Virus record (IMG/VR): IMGVR_UViG_3300044846_005229
Span: 143,986-207,985 of that record
Strand: one strand, 5' to 3'
DNA length: 64,000 bases
Source of the DNA: a virus
Part shown: piece after piece, positions 23,143 through 57,667 of the stretch
Layout of the letters: each line of letters begins with the position of its first letter
How positions within the stretch are numbered: position 1 is the stretch's first letter
Made by a program: the position numbers and the translations under genes
Notes under the pieces: model-generated
Databases searched by the model: none
Seen by the model: only the letters and a program-made list of their open reading frames with translations
Told to the model about the DNA's origin: nothing

Positions 23143-24570
23143 TTACCCCGAAACCCTGACATCCCTAATCTCTATACCCTCAGCTTCCAGCAACTCCCGG
23201 AGCCTATCTGCCTCCTTAAAATCACGGTTAGCCCTTGCGATATTACGTTTTTCAATTAGTGCTTGAATACCATCGCTTTTTGGTTTTTGAGGTGCGGGAA
23301 CCTCATGAACTAATCCTAAAATTCCGGCCAATTCACATAAGAGCCTCCAACGATTTAGAATTTCCCTATTTTCATCGCCCGCTGATACGATGGGGCGAGC
23401 CAAATAGAACAATTCCCCGATGGCTACAGACGTATTAAGATCATCATTGAGTGCCGAAATGAAACGATCTTGACTATTTTTTAAGTCTGTAGTTAAAATC
23501 AAGGGTTCATTCGTTTGCTGACTATCGCCATGTTGACTAATTCCATGCCGACTAACATCATGCTGACTAGCCCCATGCCAACTATCACCATGCCAACCAA
23601 ACCCCAATGCAGCATTTAATACTTTCCAACCATTGATCGCGGGCACCATTGCTTCCGAATTAAAATCTATCGGCTTTCTATAGTGGGCTTGTAATACGAA
23701 TAATCTAATGGTCATAGGGCTAATTCCTGATCCAATTAGGTCTCTGATGGTTGTGAAATTCCCTAAGGATTTAGCCATTTTCTCTTCCCCAACCGTGACA
23801 AACCCATTATGAAGCCAATACCTGGCTAGTTCAGCCCCATTGGCGGCCTCCGACTGGGCTATCTCGTTTTCGTGGTGAGGAAAGATCAGGTCGGCTCCGC
23901 CCAAATGAATGTCAATCGTGTCGCCCAACTCCCCGCGCACCATAGCCGAACATTCAATGTGCCAGCCGGGACGGCCCCACCCCCATGGTGACGGGTACCC
24001 ATGGTCAATAGGCATTGCCCCTTTCCAAAGAGCAAAATCAAAAGGGTGGCCCTTCTTTGAGTCGCTATTAACCTGTTGTTGGCCAAGGTTGCGACCACTT
24101 AGTTTCCCGTACCCCTTAAACCCCACAACCGAGAAGTACATATCACCACCCATAGAATAAGCAAACCCTTTATCAGCAAGGTCTTGAATCATGGTGCGGA
24201 TTGCATCAAGACTACGGGTAACCCTTGGCATTTTGTCGGCAGGCAGGATGTTCAATGTGCCCATGTCTTCCTCAAAGGCCTTAATATTGCGCTCACTGAC
24301 GGCCCCGATTGTTACTCCTTCGGAGTTGGCTTTGGCTAGAATTTTATCGTCGATATCCGTATAATTTTGAACAAACGTAACCTCATACCCATGCCACATA
24401 AAATTACGCCTTAAGACATCCCACACGATATAACTACGGGCGTGCCCTAAGTGGCATAGATCATAAACGGTAACACCGCAACAATACATCGACACTTTGC
24501 CTGGAACCAGCGGGATAAACTTCTCTTTGGTTTTAGTTAGGGTGTTGGTTAGGGTAATGTCGTTAATCAT
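23143..24570 (-). CDS. cysS: cysteinyl-tRNA synthetase (class I; HIGH = CHLGHARSY, KMSKS = KMAKSLGN) with a low-complexity insertion WHGDSWHGASQHDVSRHGISQHGDSQQ
   Basis: Full-length alignment-level similarity to CysRS (zinc ligands and anticodon-binding region present). The insertion is encoded by about 15-nt tandem DNA repeats (catgYYgactaRYM) at about 23520-23600. Confidence 0.9.
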   Translation of the reverse strand: MINDITLTNTLTKTKEKFIPLVPGKVSMYCCGVTVYDLCHLGHARSYIVWDVLRRNFMWHGYEVTFVQNYTDIDDKILAKANSEGVTIGAVSERNIKAFEEDMGTLNILPADKMPRVTRSLDAIRTMIQDLADKGFAYSMGGDMYFSVVGFKGYGKLSGRNLGQQQVNSDSKKGHPFDFALWKGAMPIDHGYPSPWGWGRPGWHIECSAMVRGELGDTIDIHLGGADLIFPHHENEIAQSEAANGAELARYWLHNGFVTVGEEKMAKSLGNFTTIRDLIGSGISPMTIRLFVLQAHYRKPIDFNSEAMVPAINGWKVLNAALGFGWHGDSWHGASQHDVSRHGISQHGDSQQTNEPLILTTDLKNSQDRFISALNDDLNTSVAIGELFYLARPIVSAGDENREILNRWRLLCELAGILGLVHEVPAPQKPKSDGIQALIEKRNIARANRDFKEADRLRELLEAEGIEIRDVRVSG

Positions 24571-40110: not shown

Positions 40111-40199
40111 AGGAAGAAGGGGGATTCGAACCCCCGGAGCCGCGAAAGCGACTCTGCAGTTTTCAAGACTGCTGCTATCAGCCACTCAGCCACTCTTCC
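40111..40199 (-). tRNA. tRNA-Ser(UGA), type II (long variable arm)
   Basis: Manual fold: acceptor GGAAGAG/TTCTTCC, D-arm, anticodon loop CUUGAAA, variable hairpin, T-loop GGGGGTTCGAATCCCCC. Confidence 0.75.
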
Positions 40200-40236
40200 A
40201 GTGGTTCATCTAATGGGCCTTCAATTGGGCCAGAAC

Positions 40237-41097
40237 CTATGACTTTATCTCACCTTGTTCTAATTCACTTGGGGTTTCTTTCTTTGGCCCCTTTGAAATT
40301 TTACGATTAGATTTGTAGCCGCACTTGCTTAATTTGTCTAGGAACAAAAATAGTCTATCTAACCAAGTTAGAGTGGGCAAGGTAGCTTTCGGTCCGAACA
40401 TCGGGGTTTTTCTGCCTTTCCAATTTAGGCCGATTCCGGCTTCACTTTCGATATGAATGACCACGATTTCCGGTAGTAACTCTCTTTTTTCTCGTGGCCA
40501 CTTTTTGCAATGCAAAACATCTGTGCGATCCGCAAATCCGTGCTTGCTCGGGTATTGACTTACCCCTGAACCTACTGGATTCCACATTTGGAAGTAACCG
40601 ATTGGCTCATAGCCCCCTTGCCAAGTTTTGTATTCAGCAATTCTGACCCCGACCGGATACCTGTCTAAATGGATAAAAATCCAAGAATCTTGAATGGGAG
40701 ATGGCTTATCTACAAACTTTATCCAATCTTCATAACCAGGGCACATCAAACGGTCGGCACCATAGATCTTTTCCTTATCTAGGGGTAAATTCTCTAGAAT
40801 TGATCGTGTTTGAGGGGGCAAGTAGATATCTGAGTCCAGGTGCAGAACCCATCCATCTAGGCTTAGTTTTTCTAACCCTGCATTTATTCCTTTGCCTTTA
40901 TTAAAGGAGTCACCGTTCTCATAAAAAACATCCGTTTGAACACACTCTACATTGTAGTATTCGCATAGCTTCTTAGTATCGTTATCCTTAGTATCGGTAA
41001 CGACTACGAGTTTATCAAATTGATTTCGGGTGCTGGGCAAGGTATGGGCCAGGAAGTCAGAGTAGTTGACGCAAATAATGACGGCTTCGAGTTTCAC
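40237..41097 (-). CDS. putative GT-A-fold glycosyltransferase (286 aa; DSD motif)
   Basis: VIICVNYSDFLAHTL...KLVVVTDTKDNDT...GINAGLEKL...LHLDSDIYLPP follows the nucleotide-sugar transferase GT-A pattern (pattern-level only). Confidence 0.45.
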   Translation of the reverse strand: MKLEAVIICVNYSDFLAHTLPSTRNQFDKLVVVTDTKDNDTKKLCEYYNVECVQTDVFYENGDSFNKGKGINAGLEKLSLDGWVLHLDSDIYLPPQTRSILENLPLDKEKIYGADRLMCPGYEDWIKFVDKPSPIQDSWIFIHLDRYPVGVRIAEYKTWQGGYEPIGYFQMWNPVGSGVSQYPSKHGFADRTDVLHCKKWPREKRELLPEIVVIHIESEAGIGLNWKGRKTPMFGPKATLPTLTWLDRLFLFLDKLSKCGYKSNRKISKGPKKETPSELEQGEIKS

Positions 41098-41146
41098 GGT
41101 TGGACGGGGGGGTAAGCCTACCTTAAATTTTACCCCCCCCCGTTCA

Positions 41147-41350
41147 TTAACCTTTCAAATTAGATTTGGCAAGGTCTAATGCGATCCAGTTTTTCAGGGT
41201 TTGAAGACTGCGAATTTTTGCCTGAAGGTGTGATAATCCTTCTTCGGAAAAAGACTCAGGACATAACTCTCGTTCAGCAATTAGTTCCCCTGCGTACATT
41301 TCAAGAGCTTCGATGGCTAGCTCTTTATCTTGTTTGGAAATTAGTGACAT
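41147..41350 (-). CDS. hypothetical protein (67 aa)
   Basis: ORF track. Confidence 0.45.
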   Translation of the reverse strand: MSLISKQDKELAIEALEMYAGELIAERELCPESFSEEGLSHLQAKIRSLQTLKNWIALDLAKSNLKG

Positions 41351-41353
41351 GGC

Positions 41354-42730
41354 CTATGAGTTGAAACCTTTGGGTGCGTTGAATCTTGGCTTGGACTTCT
41401 CTTTCTTGGAGCTAACAGCCCATTCAGACCCTTCTTTCGAAGATGAATTATCTGTCTCGCAAAATCTCTTTGCCCCCACGTAGAAAGTTTCTTTTAACTT
41501 TTGGGTAAGCTCATAGAACTTGGCGTCTGCCTCTGTATTTGAACCTAGTTTTGGTACTCTAAATCGCAAAGTTCCAAAAAACCTACCCTTGCCGACCTCG
41601 TAAGTTTCTTGAATTTTGTTGTATGCTTTTCCACTTACAATGTCATCTTCCGTCAGCTCTAAAAGACCCTCAATCATCTCTTTCGTTGGAGCTTGCTTAA
41701 CATTGGTGTCTTTGGACAAATTGCTGAAGATAAGATTGTCGGTAATACGGTAGAATCTGTTCAAATTACCTAACAAAGACCGCTTGTATTCTCGGACATT
41801 CCGTTGAACTTTCCTTAGGGTGTTACCCTTGGTAGGATCATAACCGATGATTTTACAAAAGTATAGGTCTTCATAACTTTGACCTTTTTCCAGGGTCTGA
41901 ATCTCATTCGTTGCACAAGCGAGTAAGACTTGAAGGTCCAGTGAGCCCATGTGACTACGGAGGTTAGAACGGGGGTAGTCATAAGGGGCAATCCATCCAA
42001 AATACGCACGAGAGTAATCACCTACCACTATTGCTTTTTCGGTTGAACACGGTGAGTCATTAGGGTATTTCGCCAACCGATCATAGCCAGGCAGGATTTT
42101 GGGCGCATGTTGGTTGTTAGAGTAAGTAACCTTAAATGACGGGAACACTTTAGCTACCTCTTCCTCAGTTTGTCTTTCTATAAGAGCAGGGTCTAACGGT
42201 GTTGAAGAATCCATAGTATAGTACAAGTCCGGAATAATAACATCTAAGGTTTCAGTTCGGAGTTTCAGGTCTCTCTTTCTTAATTCGTACTCTTTTGTTA
42301 TATTATTAATTGTCAATTCCTCCTGCAATTTTTTACATTGCCCCTGAGTAAGGGAATCTAAAAAGTGCCAAAATTCTAAAACTTTATTCCAATTCTTTCC
42401 GAGAACTCTCTCAGGTTCATTGAGTACGATGGCCGGGTTTAGGCTTGAAAGGTCGTTGAACCTTCGTAGAAGAATTGAGTGAATAACACTAATTCCTAGG
42501 GCCTTAGCTGTGATTTTATCTAGATTAGGGATACCTATAGAGAGATGCCCCTTCGCTAGAAAAGCCTGAAAGTCCATCACTCCCATGCCCTTAGAGAGCA
42601 TAATCGCTTCACTCTGGGCACAAGGGCTGAGACATCTTTCTTCTCTCACCAGTTCGTAACCCTTACCGGGCATACCCCCAGGCTGAGACCATTTTTTAGT
42701 TAGTTTGTTTATTAGTCCGGTGTTTGCCAT
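41354..42730 (-). CDS. large hypothetical protein (458 aa) sharing a domain with 16132..16716
   Basis: ORF track; internal paralogy noted above. Confidence 0.65.
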   Translation of the reverse strand: MANTGLINKLTKKWSQPGGMPGKGYELVREERCLSPCAQSEAIMLSKGMGVMDFQAFLAKGHLSIGIPNLDKITAKALGISVIHSILLRRFNDLSSLNPAIVLNEPERVLGKNWNKVLEFWHFLDSLTQGQCKKLQEELTINNITKEYELRKRDLKLRTETLDVIIPDLYYTMDSSTPLDPALIERQTEEEVAKVFPSFKVTYSNNQHAPKILPGYDRLAKYPNDSPCSTEKAIVVGDYSRAYFGWIAPYDYPRSNLRSHMGSLDLQVLLACATNEIQTLEKGQSYEDLYFCKIIGYDPTKGNTLRKVQRNVREYKRSLLGNLNRFYRITDNLIFSNLSKDTNVKQAPTKEMIEGLLELTEDDIVSGKAYNKIQETYEVGKGRFFGTLRFRVPKLGSNTEADAKFYELTQKLKETFYVGAKRFCETDNSSSKEGSEWAVSSKKEKSKPRFNAPKGFNS

Positions 42731-42816
42731 TTTTTTTATAGTTGTTGGTGTAGGTTGTTAATGAAAAGGATACAAATTTTGGTTACAAACCATGGTCATT
42801 ATTACCCAAAGTCAAA

Positions 42817-42906
42817 TAGGCGCGTAGGGAATCGAACCCTAACTAGCCGGTAATCTGCCGGAGAGGTCTTCATAAGGGACCCTGTGCTACCGTACACCAC
42901 ACGCCC
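42817..42906 (-). tRNA. type II tRNA (long variable arm) with anticodon loop reading CUUAUGA (apparent UAU) and a C31:A39 mismatch; identity uncertain
   Basis: Manual fold: acceptor GGGCGTG/CGCGCCT (two G:U pairs), T-loop TAGGGTTCGATTCCCTA, variable hairpin CCGG-N7-CCGG. Anticodon assignment is not secure. Confidence 0.5.
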
Positions 42907-43110
42907 GAATTTCCAGGAGTTAAACAATCGTGTTAATTACCCCGTTAGTTTCCAATTAGTTTTAATTAGGTGAAAAATCGCCCCTGGCTTTGTTAGAGCC
43001 ATTGTTTAATGGTGTTTGGTTATGGACGTATCCATGGAACCATGTAGTGTATTATCAATGGGGCATTTCCTAAACGTTAATCGTTTCTACAGCGGCCAAC
43101 TTAAATCAAG

Positions 43111-43260
43111 TCAACCAGCAACATCCTGATCGTAAAGATCAAGAGCCTCTAGAACTTCTACCCCCGTCTCAGCAGCATCTAGCCGAAGAAGCAAATCTGC
43201 AGCAGCAGGATTACTTTCAGACAGTACAGCTGCCTTAGCAGCAATCAGAGCATTAGCCAT
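43111..43260 (-). CDS. possible 49-aa Ala-rich peptide between two tRNAs
   Basis: Manual rc translation MANALIAAKAAVLSESNPAAADLLLRLDAAETGVEVLEALDLYDQDVAG. Confidence 0.3.
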   Translation of the reverse strand: MANALIAAKAAVLSESNPAAADLLLRLDAAETGVEVLEALDLYDQDVAG

Positions 43261-43319
43261 TTTTGTTTGTTTTTGTGAGCTTTGTTTAACACTTGGTATG
43301 GCTGCATCTCAGCAACCAA

Positions 43320-43391
43320 CACCCTGAGAGGGATTTGAACCCCCGACCGACGACTTAGAAGGTCGCTGCTCTTCCACTGAGCTACCAGGGC
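43320..43391 (-). tRNA. tRNA-Arg(UCU)
   Basis: Manual fold: GCCCTGG-TA-GCTCAGTGGAAGAGC-A-GCGAC-CTTCTAA-GTCGT-CGGTC-GGGGGTTCAAATCCCTC-TCAGGGT. Confidence 0.75.
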
Positions 43392-48221: not shown

Positions 48222-48998
48222 CTATATCAGGGGGTGGAGCCTGCCATCGTGGCCAAAATACCGGAGCACCTTGGTTTCCACATCGTACAGACAAAGTTTG
48301 GTATCTTCAGGGTCGATTTCGCTATGGGAAGACCCACCCATTTGACCGTCGAGGACGATGTTTTTCTCGCTGATGTAAACATTATGATAATGTCCAGCGA
48401 CCCGGACCCATTCCTTATCATCATCTTCCAGCCACCATGGGAGGCGATCAGACGTAACTTTGCCATCTTCCAGGGTAACCTTATAGAAAGGACCATAAAT
48501 CATGGTATTCAGTTCCTTGCGGGTAATAGCATTGGGCATTACTTGGTGGGTGCCATTATATTTCGGGATGGGCAATCTGCGGGGGAAACAAGCGTGAGCG
48601 CACCGGTATTCGGTCCCTTCCGCATCCCTAAATACAAAGCCATAAGGCATCGAGTCAAGCCAAGGCAATACTTCACCGACTAAGTCAATTCCGCCTCTCT
48701 CAAAGTCATCTAAGGTAGTTCGCAAGTCTTGGAAAACCTTGACCTTGTTTCCCTTGAGGCATCGAACCAGTTTATTTTGGTGATTGCTTTGTAGGATAAT
48801 AGTGCCAGGAATTTCCCTTTGAATTTGCCTCACTGCATGGTAAACTCCGACAGAATCCGAGGTTTCGCACCTTGAATCAAAAAGGTCCCCCAGTAGAATC
48901 GGGGTCAATCCTTCCGACAAGCAGTGCCCTAGGGCCGCTTCCAGGGGGGGCAACTGGGAATGGATGTCACCAATGATGGCGTAACGAATGTGTGTCAT
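48222..48998 (-). CDS. second metallophosphoesterase (IIGDIHSQ ... GDLFDSR ... SNHQ)
   Basis: Metallophosphatase motifs I-III with substitutions; paralogous fold to 38074..38796. Confidence 0.7.
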   Translation of the reverse strand: MTHIRYAIIGDIHSQLPPLEAALGHCLSEGLTPILLGDLFDSRCETSDSVGVYHAVRQIQREIPGTIILQSNHQNKLVRCLKGNKVKVFQDLRTTLDDFERGGIDLVGEVLPWLDSMPYGFVFRDAEGTEYRCAHACFPRRLPIPKYNGTHQVMPNAITRKELNTMIYGPFYKVTLEDGKVTSDRLPWWLEDDDKEWVRVAGHYHNVYISEKNIVLDGQMGGSSHSEIDPEDTKLCLYDVETKVLRYFGHDGRLHPLI

Positions 48999-49152
48999 GG
49001 GCCCATTGTAGCATGTTTGATGGGGGTTGTCTTTCAGGGTATGACTGCCGGGGTATGACTGCCGGGGTCATCACTAGAGAAAGTCTGAGTCGGTACTAGA
49101 TCCCCGTCCTAGCCATTGGGGGGGTATCACTGAGGGCATTATATCCCGTGAT

Positions 49153-49614
49153 TTAATAGTCCCAGTACTCATGGTTTAAAAAGTCTAGTAAAAGTTGGAT
49201 GATATTTCTTTTGCGTTTTTTGCTCTGTGGAGTAAACCTACCAAATTTCTCAAGTTCTTCGACAGATGCTTCCTGAAGCCAATAATGGAAAGAATCCATT
49301 TCCATGGAGCAAATTTCATTGAAGGCTAGGTCGGTGGCTTTCTTTGGGGGTTTGATGGACCGTGCGTAGTGGCTATTTGAATTATAAGTGTCAAAAACGC
49401 TAATTTCTTGAACTGGCTCAACCTTAACTTTTTCTTTCCCTCTTTTTGTAGGTAGAGATTTTAGTTCTAGTTCCTTTTCCAAGGCACCTATGAAGTTATT
49501 ATACTTAATGTTTTCATCAACGCGACTCAAGAAACGACTGTATTCATCGTCCATTTCATCTTCTGATTGGGAATGCTTTCTGAAATAATCAGGATCTATG
49601 ATTGACATTTTCAT
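49153..49614 (-). CDS. hypothetical protein (153 aa), AT-rich
   Basis: ORF track. Confidence 0.5.
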   Translation of the reverse strand: MKMSIIDPDYFRKHSQSEDEMDDEYSRFLSRVDENIKYNNFIGALEKELELKSLPTKRGKEKVKVEPVQEISVFDTYNSNSHYARSIKPPKKATDLAFNEICSMEMDSFHYWLQEASVEELEKFGRFTPQSKKRKRNIIQLLLDFLNHEYWDY

Positions 49615-49867
49615 CTAGTACGGCCTGAACAGCAAGGGAAAGATTATCCATTGGTCGGAAACTCCATCGGGATCAGAACTTGGCAATTATTTCGCCGGAT
49701 AAACATCAGGGGGATACAACTGATTGATTGCGTCTCTAATTAGGAGAGCAGCGCTTTAAGGTTGTGATAGGCATTTTGCTGTGGGGGTTGTTTGGAACTG
49801 TTATCAGTGCCACTCTAGCATGGTTGCTGCTAGGTGTCAACTCTTAACCAAGTTATAAATGTAGTGA

Positions 49868-49980
49868 ATGGGACCAGTAGGATTTGAACCTACACCTCTC
49901 CTTTAACGTAGGAATTTAATTGCTGATGTATCTTTGACAAGATAACTTTCTTTAGCGCTCTGTCGTTGAGCTATGGTCCC
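49868..49980 (-). tRNA. tRNA-like gene with canonical acceptor, D and T arms and a candidate anticodon arm (TTCCT-ACGTTAA-AGGAG, GUU?), interrupted by an about 41-nt insertion between the D and anticodon arms
   Basis: GGGACCA-TA-GCTC-AACGACA-GAGC-G-[CTAAAGAAAGTTATCTTGTCAAAGATACATCAGCAATTAAA]-TTCCTACGTTAAAGGAG-AGGT-GTAGGTTCAAATCCTAC-TGGTCCC-A. The insertion contains its own hairpin TATCTT-GTCA-AAGATA. Confidence 0.5.
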
Positions 49981-50456
49981 TTGTTTGCTTCGCAAATAGC
50001 TTGTTGAAACATGGTTTAGCTAGATAGTTGGTTTTCCGATTTTGAAGGGGATGGTTGCTGAACTATCTACGTTTGCCGAAGGCAAAGTCGAAGAGGCAAG
50101 ATTCGAACTTGCGTATGGCGGTTCCTTTAGCGCATTTGGTGTTGCTGAGCTACCTAAAGCATAACTAGATAGTCCTTTTGCATTACCGCCGCCTTACCAC
50201 TTGGCTACTCTTCGTTTTGGGTGTCTGGGTGTCTTAACCGTTAAAGGTCAACAAGGTGAGTTTTGCTGGATTTGAACCATTCCCCTTTGTTGCCCTGGTG
50301 AACTACCAGGGAAGCTAACTTTATTTAAACAAGATGGTTGGTTTTTCTGTTACAAAGAAAGGTTAGATTGCTGAACCATCTTACGGGATTGCCTTACTTA
50401 CCGCCCATTAACCCTATTTCCATCAGGCGAATACCATACCCACAGAGTCATACCTT

Positions 50457-51929
50457 TCAGTATATACCGCGTCCCGCATCAGGGACAATGGGGGTAATTG
50501 CATTGCCGGTAAGAACTGCGGTCAGGATTGACGGAGAGCAACCGCTAACGAGAGCGGTACCGGAATCATGGACCTTCATCGGGACGTTATCTGAGGAATT
50601 GACATTCCAGAAGATGACATCAGGCAAGCTATAACCAGCTTGGGCATACTTGATTCGAATTGCTTCGTAGTTAGTGACTTTTTTTCCGCTATACCCCCAA
50701 CCAGAACCAGTGCCACCCATGACAACACAGTCATCAAACTGCATGTCTGAGACAATAATCAGTTTGCGGGGCATGTCTGACTCTGGAATGTTGTTCCGAA
50801 CTGCAGTATCCAGAATAAGGTCAAACGTCTTTTGGATGTCAGTGTTACCACCCCAATCTGCTCGGCTCAGGTTTCTAACCTTGCTGGAGAGACTATTGCC
50901 AGTCACAGTTTGTAGGGAGGGGTTACCCGAAAATGTTAGAAACTTGTTTTTCCAGATGCCAGTATTACGCTCTGCGATATACATCGCCAGAGAGATGGAT
51001 ACTGCCATCGGACGACCCTCCATGGAACCGCTAACATCGGCAACAACAAGCCCATTCAATTCCTTGCCTTCCATGTAGTTGGGTAGAGCCTGCCAGAGGA
51101 GTTCAAGAGTATCGTTTGATTCGTTGTTATAGAGACACTTCTCAACGATGTCATACGGGTACAAAGTACCGGCATTGATTTTTGCCTCGCCTTTCTTGAC
51201 TGCATCGAGGTAAGACTGGTAGCGAGCACCATCATGGTTAGCAAAAGCTTTCCGATACATGAAGCCTGCACGAGAAGGCAACTTGCTATACTCAATGGCG
51301 TCCCACTCACGGGCACACATTGGTTGTTCTACGATATTGATTTGGGTGCGAAGCGCAGTCAGGGCCTTGCGGTATTGACGCTCATTCCAACCCATTGCCT
51401 TAGCGATAAGACGGCCAACCCGCTTGGATTCCTTGCTAGAAGCGTTAATGGAAGGTAGCCATTTTGCTAGTAGTGACACTGGGTTTCCAACTTCGGTGTT
51501 CAGGTCAGTATTAAGCTGCGTCTTAATTGCTTCTAGGGCGATGACCCAAACTAGCGTCCCTTCGAGGGCCACAACATCGTCCCAGCGACCGTACTGCGGG
51601 ATCAGGCCTACCAGCTTAGCTCCAATGGTCGCATCATTGCGAACCAGCTCCTTGAAGACTTCCCGGAAGATTTTTCGTTCTCCTTGCCCAATCCCCCTAA
51701 TATCACGTGCCCAAAACAGGATCCGGGTCGCAGTTTCAGGATCTTCGGCATAGGCTGACTTAAAGAGTTTAATGGCTGCATCAACATTATCACGGCAAGC
51801 TGCGATTTTACCGAAAAGGTCTAGGTTCTTTTGGCCCGTGGACCTATAGGCCTTTGCGCCGTTTGCAGTTGTGGTGATATTGGAGTTGGTATCCAGTTGG
51901 TTCTCAAGTGCATTCAAAAAGGTTGTCAT
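50457..51929 (-). CDS. vWA-domain protein with a large N-terminal helical (TROVE/DUF2828-like) domain; Ro60/Rsr-like architecture
   Basis: MIDAS motif VVADVSGSMEG plus downstream vWA strands; N-terminal about 330-aa helical region. Start moved to MTTFLNALEN. Confidence 0.65.
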   Translation of the reverse strand: MTTFLNALENQLDTNSNITTTANGAKAYRSTGQKNLDLFGKIAACRDNVDAAIKLFKSAYAEDPETATRILFWARDIRGIGQGERKIFREVFKELVRNDATIGAKLVGLIPQYGRWDDVVALEGTLVWVIALEAIKTQLNTDLNTEVGNPVSLLAKWLPSINASSKESKRVGRLIAKAMGWNERQYRKALTALRTQINIVEQPMCAREWDAIEYSKLPSRAGFMYRKAFANHDGARYQSYLDAVKKGEAKINAGTLYPYDIVEKCLYNNESNDTLELLWQALPNYMEGKELNGLVVADVSGSMEGRPMAVSISLAMYIAERNTGIWKNKFLTFSGNPSLQTVTGNSLSSKVRNLSRADWGGNTDIQKTFDLILDTAVRNNIPESDMPRKLIIVSDMQFDDCVVMGGTGSGWGYSGKKVTNYEAIRIKYAQAGYSLPDVIFWNVNSSDNVPMKVHDSGTALVSGCSPSILTAVLTGNAITPIVPDAGRGIY

Positions 51930-52079
51930 TTTTCTTCTCTCAAGTTGATTGTTTTGTGTTTGTGTTTCGGATACAAATAATAGCTGTATCAACTTTGCCC
52001 CTAGGAGTTAATTTTAGGGGTGGTGGTGGGGGGCACTGACGGCCCCGATATTGGGCAGTTTGTAACTTAGCTGGGTCAA

Positions 52080-56575: not shown

Positions 56576-57667
56576 TCAGCCACTCTTCTTCCCCTTAGAT
56601 AGCAACCACTCATTACTAATGGCCTTAAAGGAAAACTCAGAGTCATTGGACTTGAATACTAAGCCCTCACGTTTAACGTTAGGATTCATGGACGGGCCAT
56701 CGGCGTACGCTAGTAGCTCATCTAGGTTGGCGAAACTATCGGTTACACACATTGCGGGGTGTAGGACAGGGGCATGGGTTAAATCAGCGCCTAATGGAAC
56801 CAGGTACTTGTCCAAGAGGTTCATTCTGGCCCCTGGCTTCATGTAGGTCTGGTTGTCGATATCGAAGATGTCGAACAGATATAGCCGTTGTCCCTTGATT
56901 CCTTCCTGATTGCCCTGGATGCCTTCTCCAAGGGTTTCCGACTGCAAGGCAATACTGTGACCAGTCTTCCCATTGTATGCAAGCATAGCATCGATAATGC
57001 CCTGGTCCCTAGCAGCCTTCCAGAAACTATTGCCTTCGGTTTCCTTGAGATCAAGGTTACGGCTGCAAACCCCAATGTCACCGTCTTTGACGTAAATCGT
57101 ACATGAAGATCCGTCGAGCTTCAGGGTAACTTCGTAGGTCTCATTCCTGTGGGTCTCAAAGATTTCGCTAGCGATATTCTGACAACGTTCCTGGTCTGTC
57201 TTCACAAGGAAGCTCGGGAAGTTGCCTTTTGCAATGCCAGCCAAACAAGCCGGTACAGGAGCCTCCCATTTCTGAATGCCGAGAATTTCGGTTACGTCGT
57301 CTCCTTCCTGAAGGCCCCTCTCAAATGCGGTGACATAGTAACTGAAGTCTACATAGAGCTTTAGAGAAATAGGCAACAGCAACCCTTGGCTGAGTTGCCC
57401 ACGGAGCTTAACGGTCTTGAGACGTTCGCCCTTCACGCCGTTATACTCACGGGGCTCTTTCCCATTAGAAAGGAAGGGCGCCAACTCGTGAGGAATAAAT
57501 GAGTCGGGTTCTGCGTAAATTACCAAATCCCCTACTTCATACTTCCCCACAGAATCCACAACCCACCAGCCATTCACACGGTAGGCACAGATTCTATCGG
57601 CTTCAGGGATGGGGCGAATCTCAGCAATGCGCTGGACAGATGCAAGTTTGCGTTCGATGTTTGCCAT
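56576..57667 (-). CDS. ATP-dependent RNA (or DNA) ligase-family protein, nucleotidyltransferase motif I KLDGSS, with an N-terminal OB-like extension
   Basis: KxDG adenylyltransferase motif in VTLKLDGSSCTIYVK. N-terminal IAEIRPIPEADRI...VNGWWVV...KYEVGDLVIYAEPDSFIP resembles Rnl-family ligases with an N-terminal domain (pattern-level). Confidence 0.65.
   Translation of the reverse strand: MANIERKLASVQRIAEIRPIPEADRICAYRVNGWWVVDSVGKYEVGDLVIYAEPDSFIPHELAPFLSNGKEPREYNGVKGERLKTVKLRGQLSQGLLLPISLKLYVDFSYYVTAFERGLQEGDDVTEILGIQKWEAPVPACLAGIAKGNFPSFLVKTDQERCQNIASEIFETHRNETYEVTLKLDGSSCTIYVKDGDIGVCSRNLDLKETEGNSFWKAARDQGIIDAMLAYNGKTGHSIALQSETLGEGIQGNQEGIKGQRLYLFDIFDIDNQTYMKPGARMNLLDKYLVPLGADLTHAPVLHPAMCVTDSFANLDELLAYADGPSMNPNVKREGLVFKSNDSEFSFKAISNEWLLSKGKKSG

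Follow-up and report, generated by a model that had tools for sequence, protein, structure and literature searches.

A 64,000-nt stretch of viral DNA (IMG/VR virus record IMGVR_UViG_3300044846_005229, positions 143,986 to 207,985; hereafter the window) encodes two tRNA-shaped noncoding RNAs, W1 (49869..49980, minus strand) and W2 (50088..50214, minus strand), which share a strand with the gene of a Ro60-like protein (50457..51929, minus strand) and lie 477 and 243 nt downstream of it. Both keep the acceptor stem, D arm and T arm of a tRNA, and in both the anticodon arm is taken over by a conserved module: a helix that an A-rich strand enters and the motif CAGCAAUU leaves. They belong to a family of covarying RNAs that holds a fixed place beside the gene and whose motif has spread with the protein through distantly related phages. 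W1 and W2 are, in our view, probably Y-RNA-like tRNA mimics in canonical tRNA order and partners of the upstream protein.

W1 is 112 nt long and scores 47.8 bits with the Rfam tRNA model (RF00005; E=3.9e-7 for the whole window), whose gathering score is 29 bits. It comprises a 7-bp acceptor stem, the D arm, a 2-bp closing stem (CU/AG), the module, a residual hairpin (CCU-ACGUUAA-AGG), a variable region and the T arm. Written out, the molecule runs GGGACCA UA GCUC-AACGACA-GAGC G CU up to the module, AAAGAAAGU UAUCUU-GUCA-AAGAUA CAU CAGCAAUUAAAUU through it and CCU-ACGUUAA-AGG AG AGGU GUAGG-UUCAAAU-CCUAC UGGUCCC A after it, the last A being the discriminator; CCA is not encoded. The module (49913..49953, minus strand) is made of the A-rich linker AAAGAAAG, the hairpin (49929-49944) and then CAU-CAGCAAUUAAAUU, with CAGCAA at 49920-49925. 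RF00005 gives the anticodon arm 54 nt versus the 13 that it expects, and the ~41 extra nucleotides split the 5' strand of the stem. When W1 is folded alone, its minimum free energy structure is exactly the proposed shape, with z=-3.8 against 200 shuffles.

An initial annotation, made from the letters of this stretch, had pointed to a tRNA-like gene here with an insertion of about 41 nt. The gene is real, and its acceptor stem (GGGACCA/UGGUCCC), D arm (GCUC-AACGACA-GAGC), T arm (GUAGG-UUCAAAU-CCUAC), inner hairpin (UAUCUU-GUCA-AAGAUA) and small hairpin with the loop ACGUUAA (C33) are all present as claimed; its orientation had to be corrected to the minus strand, the quoted strings having been reverse complements. 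The insertion is likewise present, and comparative data place it after position 28 rather than 26: in this register CU, module and CCU pair perfectly with AGGAG in W1, and in the orthologue at locus L002 CG, module and CCU pair with AGGCG, where position 26 would leave an A-C mismatch. ARAGORN called neither W1 nor W2, and found three ordinary tRNAs in the window at 40-43 kb (40111-43391). The annotation had offered covariance scores below threshold as grounds for its own dismissal; these do not apply, since the tRNA model scores far above its threshold.

W2, at 127 nt, scores 47.6 bits with RF00005. The anticodon stem is intact (5 bp, GCGGU/ACCGC), but where a tRNA would have a 7-nt loop it closes 62 nt, with the module hairpin CUAUCUA...UAGGUAG inside and CAGCAA at 50142-50147. 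It retains the elbow nucleotides of a tRNA (U8, A14, G18-G19 and the T-loop GUUCRANYC), and it has orthologues in L001, L002, L003, L006 and L025, among which the module hairpin covaries. Next to it, at 50215..50330 (minus strand), alignment with L001 and L025, both of which hold an intact 118-nt gene here, reveals the conserved leader hairpin CCCUGGUAGUUCACCAGGG followed by AGGGGAAUGGU, the first 11 nt and 5' acceptor strand of a gene of the L001a type, and then unrelated sequence; by this alignment the segment is a deletion remnant of a third tRNA-like gene. What had been described as one degenerate tRNA-like stretch at about 50085-50330 thus resolves into a second full member of the family and this remnant.

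Through the protein we recovered 27 IMG/VR contigs at 41-93% identity, 25 of which carry 1-5 tRNA-like genes downstream of the protein gene on the same strand. At a protein identity of at least 61% there are always 1-5 long (110-128 nt) tRNA-model matches downstream on that strand, and the position of the RNAs relative to the gene is conserved down to 57%. Cultured relatives at this last level of identity are Synechococcus phages B3 and B23 (Kyanoviridae), whose depositors labelled the RNA 'tRNA-OTHER / tRNA-Undet-???'; nucleotide searches of the region against cultured phages gave no match, and these relatives were reached by protein-level search. The linkage also holds in reverse: all three testable contigs fetched by the RNA motif alone have the protein gene directly upstream, in a scan of viral contigs with an exact, very specific pattern that mostly returned contigs already known.

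The family comprises 71 genes built on ~8 unrelated tRNA bodies (acceptors GGGACC, GGGGAAG, GCCGAAG, GCCGAGA, ACCAGAA, AGGGGAA, AGAUGGG and CGAAGAG), with the module at the same position in each. One module at one site is common to all of them: an A-rich linker, a covarying 6-7-bp hairpin (consensus UAUCUWG...CWAGAUA), 1-4 nt and the invariant C-GCAAUU. R1, our covariance model of the family, scores the 71 members at 64-111 bits and ordinary tRNAs at no more than 52 bits, and in the window it finds exactly two matches, W1 (104.2 bits, E~1e-19) and W2 (72.1 bits). Across 44 distinct sequences the proposed pairs form in 95.9% of cells, compared with 70.9% after shuffling and 41-50% with slid partners, figures that are somewhat inflated because the alignment behind the pair counts was fitted to the model. 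In 19 of the 24 family pairs both partners change. Within the module hairpin 98.9% of cells are paired, and three of its six pairs covary (UA<->CG, UA<->CG, AU<->UA), while compensatory changes preserve pairing in the acceptor, D and T stems (99.7%, 93% and 99.5%) and the elbow nucleotides are kept in at least 90% of the family.

This covariation effectively refutes the idea that the RNAs are decaying tRNA pseudogenes with chance insertions, to which we give almost no credence. Such decay would fit their rejection by ARAGORN, the loss of G18-G19 and U33 from W1, the truncated third copy adjoining and the fact that the depositors of B23 managed only 'tRNA-Undet'; it does not fit a module that is invariant in motif and covarying in stem across ~8 bodies, cloverleaf stems maintained by compensatory change, or a position relative to the gene that persists to 57% protein identity.

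A second alternative, which we consider improbable, is that these are genuine decoding tRNAs with a new kind of small intron, the phage system cutting at the hairpin or at CAGCAA and rejoining the halves, for example with the RNA ligase encoded at 56576-57667. Removing the module from W1 does leave a 71-nt cloverleaf with a perfect 5-bp anticodon stem, the L002-type orthologue would give CGCCU-CUUUUAA-AGGCG, a normal tRNA-Lys(UUU) arm resembling an ordinary tRNA-Lys in L034, and genes for both an RNA ligase and a phosphoesterase (48222-48998) are near. However, W1 and W2 satisfy the cloverleaf model without showing what decoding requires, namely a 5-bp stem, a 7-nt loop, U33, a purine at 37 and an anticodon conserved among orthologues. 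The loop of W1, with its C33, forms only across the 41-nt insertion, and W2 has no loop. Orthologues with the same body have the loops AUUGGGA, AUAAAA (6 nt), AUUACAA or ACUUGAAA (8 nt), or have lost the hairpin; in the lineage of W1 the series runs CUUUUAA -> CGUUUAA -> ACGUUAA, with U33 lost, and L025b has G33 in place of the universal U33. The residual hairpin is missing from L010a, W2 and L018a, and in W2 and two other families the module simply takes the place of the loop. No other part of the molecule, the 'exon' loop included, is as well conserved as the insert, and the motif also occurs in settings that offer nothing to splice, namely stand-alone hairpins and an mRNA leader. Module-free twins of any body, within 4-5 mismatches, were absent from every locus examined, so a recent mobile insertion into real tRNAs was rejected as well.

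Nor does the insert resemble a known intron. It lies at 28/29 rather than at the canonical 37/38 or another anticodon-loop site, no intron family in Rfam matches 49000-51200 at E<=10, and no bulge-helix-bulge is evident by eye at the W1 junctions, for which no formal scan was made. Known self-cleaving ribozymes (hammerhead, twister, pistol, hatchet, HDV-like theta) were also set aside, with no Rfam match at E<=10 and no core motifs on reading. We therefore agree with the initial annotation that the insertion is not canonical, 41 nt being far too short for a group I or group II intron, and find no support for its suggestion of a novel intervening element, given the unconserved spliced loop, the missing U33 of W1 and the want of module-free twins. 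Its mention of a permuted tRNA holds in an inverted sense, as it is the YrlA relatives described below that are permuted and W1 that has normal tRNA order. Closest of its four options, the remaining one being a processed tRNA, was a tRNA-derived regulatory RNA: the data describe a conserved, tRNA-shaped noncoding RNA in which a module replaces the anticodon arm, beside a Ro60-like gene.

The gene upstream of the RNAs encodes 490 amino acids from a likely ATG start at 51929, its open reading frame (ORF) running mechanically to a TTG at 51992. Pfam finds DUF2828, DUF7788 and a weak vWA domain, and PHROG 850 is annotated 'RNA-binding protein'. An AlphaFold model made from 36 homologues (mean predicted local distance difference test, pLDDT, 65) consists of ~17 helices in an all-alpha repeat followed by an alpha/beta vWA domain, which agrees, at moderate confidence, with the HEAT-repeat ring and C-terminal vWA domain of Ro60 (TROVE) proteins. 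The best Foldseek matches are all Ro60, in full-length alignments: Ro60 of phage phiLo (9l5y, E=8.5e-7) and Ro60 with pre-5S rRNA (9nep, E=1.6e-3) are among them, and the top structural matches, from Xenopus, Deinococcus and phage phiLo, extend over 264-283 residues. The protein is thus Ro60-like by predicted fold, a relationship seen through structure comparison only; phmmer and profile searches against the PDB linked it to no solved structure. Mycobacteriophage annotators name the family 'Ro-like RNA binding protein'. DUF2828 proteins are encoded by ~700 sequenced phages of very different hosts, Felixounavirus-type coliphages included, and typically in or beside tRNA arrays; Bas63 gp130, discussed below, is a protein described as Ro60-like and encoded at that genomic position.

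The helix and its motif are not confined to the tRNA-like genes. Between these genes lie hairpins of 45-65 nt with the form 5'-(U/A)AGRUxxUU-CAGCAAU...A-rich-AAxxAYCU(A/U)-3', a circular permutation of the internal module in which the same helix has the A-rich strand going in and CAGCAAU coming out; more than 10 stem variants in related loci covary inside each hairpin. R2, a covariance model seeded on hairpins of this clade only, has three matches in the window, none outside 50.0-52.0 kb. Spacer B, between W2 and W1 (50021..50069, minus strand; UAGAUAGUU-CAGCAAC...AAAACC-AACUAUCUA; fold z=-3.6), scores 47.6 bits by construction, since its own sequence is in the seed. Spacer A, between the protein gene and the RNA genes (50331..50382, minus strand; AAGAUGGUU-CAGCAAUC...AAAACC-AACCAUCUU), is conserved in L001 and L025 and scores 55.4 bits with a near-identical L001 copy in the seed. 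The third match, at 51942..51995 (minus strand; AAGUUGAU-ACAGCUAUU...AAAACA-AUCAACUU), is in the leader of the protein mRNA and ends 12 nt before the ATG; it scores 34.6 bits (E~1e-4) and is itself absent from the seed, which holds the leader hairpins of two related loci. Equivalent leader hairpins are found in L024, L025, L018, L026, L027, B23, Bacillus phage PK-3 and Vibrio phage ValKK3. Pairing of the spacer halves across a tRNA-like gene, as an extension of the acceptor, was rejected, since the stems covary inside each spacer and not across, and the strand specificity of the motif, together with its compensatory stem changes, led us to discard a signal at the DNA level, for example a promoter.

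The main rival to a Ro60-like partner is that the helix with CAGCAA is a processing or stability signal, or the site of another protein, for example a host RNase or some other product of the phage, with the tRNA-like RNAs as decoys or scaffolds and the linkage to the gene reflecting shared residence in tRNA islands. We judge this unlikely, though the least unlikely of the alternatives. It draws support from the hairpins that stand between ordinary tRNAs in B23, L024, Bacillus phage PK-3 and a FelixO1-like phage, where a role in transcript processing is possible, and from the presence of the DUF2828 gene inside the tRNA arrays of many phages, by which co-location alone is confounded. Against it, the three ordinary tRNAs of the window (40111-43391) have no such hairpin. 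Retention of the motif in phages whose hosts are cyanobacteria, Firmicutes, Actinobacteria and Proteobacteria also favours a partner encoded by the phage rather than one specific to a host. In Mycobacterium phage UPIE, three copies of the motif come right after the gene in a 7.4-kb locus without any tRNA match at E<=0.01. Finally, the copies located in the gene's own leader are compatible with autoregulation.

Distant phages connect the family to YrlA, the bacterial Y RNA whose putative Ro60-recognition motif, GNCGAAN0-1G, lies near the 5' end (Chen et al. 2014, PMC4201824). Directly downstream of the gene, the Rfam YrlA model (RF02553) gives specific, if sub-threshold, matches to RNAs in Klebsiella phage KP2025 (40.1 and 34.3 bits) and in UPIE (39.8 bits), with E~1e-5. 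These RNAs start with a stem and CAGCAAUUAAC and finish with an A-rich stretch and the other stem strand; their terminal stem bears the same CAGCAAUUA motif as the RNAs of our clade, their CAGCAA aligns with the CGAA ('CgaA') positions of the model, and stand-alone CAGCAA hairpins flank them. Over eight distant loci, 21 hairpin-closed CAGCAA motifs lie on the gene strand versus 6 on the other, compared with 3.2±1.8 (maximum 8) in dinucleotide shuffles, and the clade-trained R2 matches two KP2025 hairpins at 30.4 and 28.3 bits. For W1, L002, L011a and L010b we made permuted versions in silico, each cut at its module loop and fused at its acceptor ends; these align collinearly and nearly gaplessly with the natural YrlA-like RNAs in the order stem strand - CAGCAAUUA - variable region - T arm - acceptor - D arm - A-rich - stem strand. 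Since the helix of W1 and W2 matches the YrlA-like terminal stem, the supposed site of Ro60 recognition, each molecule corresponds to a circular permutation of YrlA.

Y RNAs are tRNA mimics encoded on the same strand as Ro60 and less than 4 kb from it (PMC4201824). W1 and W2 show this proximity and orientation, though to a DUF2828 rather than a Pfam TROVE protein, and they have the tRNA-like domain with T arm, D arm and acceptor-like stem. The long stem formed by the 5' and 3' ends with the Ro site is not seen in them: their ends form the acceptor stem, and the candidate helix, with its CAGCAAUU, is internal.

Several observations weigh against the reading of W1 and W2 as partners of a Ro60-like protein. 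The protein model is modest (pLDDT 65, TM score ~0.4), and neither Pfam (E<=0.01), phmmer nor a 12-sequence profile against the PDB returns Ro60/TROVE (PF05731). On the RNA side, RF02553 has no match at 49000-51200 even at E<=10, the YrlA hits in KP2025 and UPIE are below the Rfam gathering score (69 bits), three of the five distant R2 matches are marginal (E~0.4), and the motif is CAGCAA rather than the canonical GNCGAA. W1, while keeping U8, A14 and the T loop, has a D loop (AACGACA) without the G18-G19 pair that over 90% of the family retains, and it may therefore be a weakened copy.

If W1 and W2 are such partners, the helix that replaces the anticodon arm, with its A-rich strand entering and CAGCAAUU leaving, would be the binding site of the protein. 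Because they keep the acceptor stem, both arms and most elbow nucleotides, the RNAs would be expected to be cut from the transcript by RNase P and the 3' tRNA-processing enzymes, and to be seen as tRNA by tRNA-binding proteins. The stand-alone hairpins may serve as YrlB-like minimal ligands, and the hairpin in the protein's own mRNA leader suggests that the protein binds its own message, with possible autoregulation. By analogy with Ro60 and Y RNAs, the ribonucleoprotein (RNP) could tether the ring protein to a tRNA-recognising, RNA-degrading or RNA-repairing partner during infection. As to a role, the context points by analogy to RNA repair, RNA turnover or counter-defence and chooses none of them. 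It consists of the nearby RNA ligase and phosphoesterase, the RtcB gene that in Listeria phage LP-048 lies beside the DUF2828 homologue, 1.3 kb downstream, the rsr-yrlBA-rtcBA precedent of Salmonella (PMC7790460), the recruitment of host PNPase by phiLo Ro60 (PMC12135203) and Bas63 gp130, a protein described as Ro60-like, encoded upstream of 'tRNAs' and reported to counter the Ppl defence (PMC11482910).

Further features were noted around the arrays. Some reduced relatives of the family have an acceptor, module and T arm with a simple hairpin for the D arm and CUGCA for CAGCA, and others are stand-alone hairpins that have in their loop only CAGCAAUC and a T arm, similar to YrlB of M. smegmatis (L024 6920-7006 and 7250-7313, L020 5729-5813, L014 5924-6009, L018 4344). 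An extra 0.7-1.5 kb separates the protein gene, or the first RNA, from the rest of the array at L024 5600-6340 and L001 5974-7440; in L024 it holds an ORF of 246 aa that may encode a homing endonuclease and in which K-x-LG-x-GIFS-like motifs are repeated. This insert is missing from the window, where the truncated RNA gene lies at the junction. In B23 (L028 5750-5790) and L024 (6355-6395) the array directly follows a strong sigma70-type promoter (GGGGG-TTGACA-N17-TAAGAT) with a flanking inverted repeat of a G-run and a C-run. The window has only a weak TTGTCC-18-TATACT at 50488-50459, and as the strong promoter is lacking its array may be co-transcribed with the protein gene. Just after W1, at 49812-49845 (minus strand), a promoter-like TTGACA-17-TAGAGT (10/12) overlaps a hairpin, CUAGCA-GCAACCA-UGCUAG, with a further CAGCAA, which may have arisen by chance or represent a degenerate motif copy. 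In LP-048 (L046), a ROOL RNA (RF03087) at 1469-2020, 90 bits and just under the gathering score of 99.1, lies among tRNAs ~1 kb upstream of the DUF2828 gene, with three CAGCAA hairpins in between.

The window appears to belong to a large phage: nearly all of its long ORFs are on one strand, and it has genes for a cysteinyl-tRNA synthetase, a sliding clamp, the RNA ligase and the phosphoesterase. Few phages encode an aminoacyl-tRNA synthetase; the one found here is a full-length class I enzyme (23143-24570, minus strand; PF01406, E=1.7e-119, with DALR and anticodon-binding domains). At 42817-42906 (minus strand) ARAGORN calls a 90-nt 'tRNA-Ile(tat)' with a long variable arm (CCGGC-AGAUUA-CCGG...) and an apparent 9-nt anticodon loop (CCUUAUGAA). 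It scores under the gathering threshold of the Rfam tRNA model. A type-II shape together with a UAU or UUA triplet is uncommon among tRNAs, and this one could be a suppressor or another mimic. In related loci the wcaG RNA motif (RF01761, 57-79 bits) occurs a few kb downstream (L014 9093-9189, L017 9287-9392, L018 7285-7387, L022 4635-4736), consistent with a cyanophage origin of the clade, and the selenocysteine tRNA model scores 47-48.4 bits, at or just above its gathering score, within tRNA arrays (L010 305-390; L014 323-406 and 7029-7112).

Conservation of Ro60 and its Y RNAs extends from bacteria to humans, and we know of no established reason why bacterial Y RNAs mimic tRNA. A mimic with real tRNA ends could be processed, CCA-tailed and perhaps charged while its anticodon position holds the presumed Ro helix, and so would serve as a naturally occurring permuted control, opened elsewhere on the circle, with which to ask what tRNA-handling factors a Ro RNP recruits. 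The family also supplies candidate partner RNAs, and a simple signature (helix plus CAGCAA), for the DUF2828 'Ro-like' proteins, accounts for 'tRNA-Undet' and 'tRNA-OTHER' calls in cyanophage genomes, and warns that tRNA counts of large phages include non-decoding mimics. In the literature that we found, this topology, motif and array are undescribed, the nearest statement being a guess, for a Ro60-like phage protein, that 'some tRNA genes ... are possibly Y RNAs' (PMC11482910).

Among known systems, intron-containing tRNAs (bacterial with group I introns, or archaeal and eukaryal with a bulge-helix-bulge) share with the family a tRNA-model match with extra sequence in the anticodon arm, removal of which restores a cloverleaf in some members. 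Unlike them, the phage RNAs have an insert of 41-55 nt with no group I core and no evident bulge-helix-bulge, placed at 28/29 or replacing the whole loop, and it is this insert that is most conserved, while the restored loop is not.

The abundant Class I RNAs of Dictyostelium (RF01414; Kjellin et al. 2021, PMC7919456) have, in a design shared with the stand-alone phage hairpins, a short terminal stem and an unpaired CCUUACAGCAA, compared with (U)UACAGCAA or UUCAGCAA in the phage RNAs, and their near-invariant C6, C9, A10 and A11 correspond to four of the five invariant phage bases (C-GCAA). They differ in being eukaryotic, with polymerase-dependent genes that have their own promoter element, and are reported to bind the RNA recognition motif protein Rnp1A/CIBP (PMC7919456). 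RF01414 weakly matches two KP2025 hairpins (L048 4530-4583 and 4614-4667; 25.0 and 22.6 bits, gathering score 41.5) and finds none of the window's own hairpins at E<=10. We know of no link between Class I RNAs and a Ro-like protein; a Class I pull-down reportedly contained, among four proteins, the uncharacterised DDB_G0281243. The resemblance may be convergent or due to chance. Rather speculatively, a helix with an unpaired (UA)CAGCAA might be an ancient signature of the DUF2828 branch of Ro60-like proteins, in which case phage stand-alone hairpins, phage YrlA-like RNAs, the unpermuted cyanophage mimics and Class I RNAs would form one trans-kingdom RNA family; we rate this conjecture a little below even the processing-signal explanation.

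YrlA (RF02553; PMC4201824) shares far more with W1 and W2: a place beside a Ro60-type ring and vWA gene on the same strand, a length of ~110-130 nt, tRNA-like T and D arms and an acceptor-like stem of 7 bp, with the tertiary nucleotides conserved, a helix beside a short, conserved single-stranded motif that is the presumed protein site (GNCGAA or CAGCAA), an identical order of elements around the circle, and shorter motif-only RNAs alongside (YrlB or the stand-alone hairpins). The two differ in where the circle is open, as YrlA ends in the Ro-binding stem and has its acceptor stem closed by a loop, whereas W1 and W2 end at the acceptor and have the presumed Ro helix closed by a loop at the anticodon position. 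They differ also in motif (GNCGAA versus CAGCAAUU), in partner (Pfam TROVE versus DUF2828 type) and in the model that detects them, which for W1 and W2 is that of tRNA and not that of YrlA; and the phage RNAs, unlike YrlA, come in arrays of up to five with different bodies. The phage RNAs thus resemble YrlA but lack its terminal Ro stem, its GNCGAA and a match to its Rfam model, and they match the tRNA model but lack a decoding anticodon arm. Yrn1 of Deinococcus radiodurans, whose partner is a Ro60 orthologue (PMC4201824), has D-like and T-like arms in normal tRNA order from the 5' end, as W1 and W2 do. In Yrn1 the Ro helix stands at the acceptor position and an anticodon-like arm is kept, whereas W1 and W2 reverse this arrangement: their acceptor stem is a true one, and the helix occupies the position of the anticodon.

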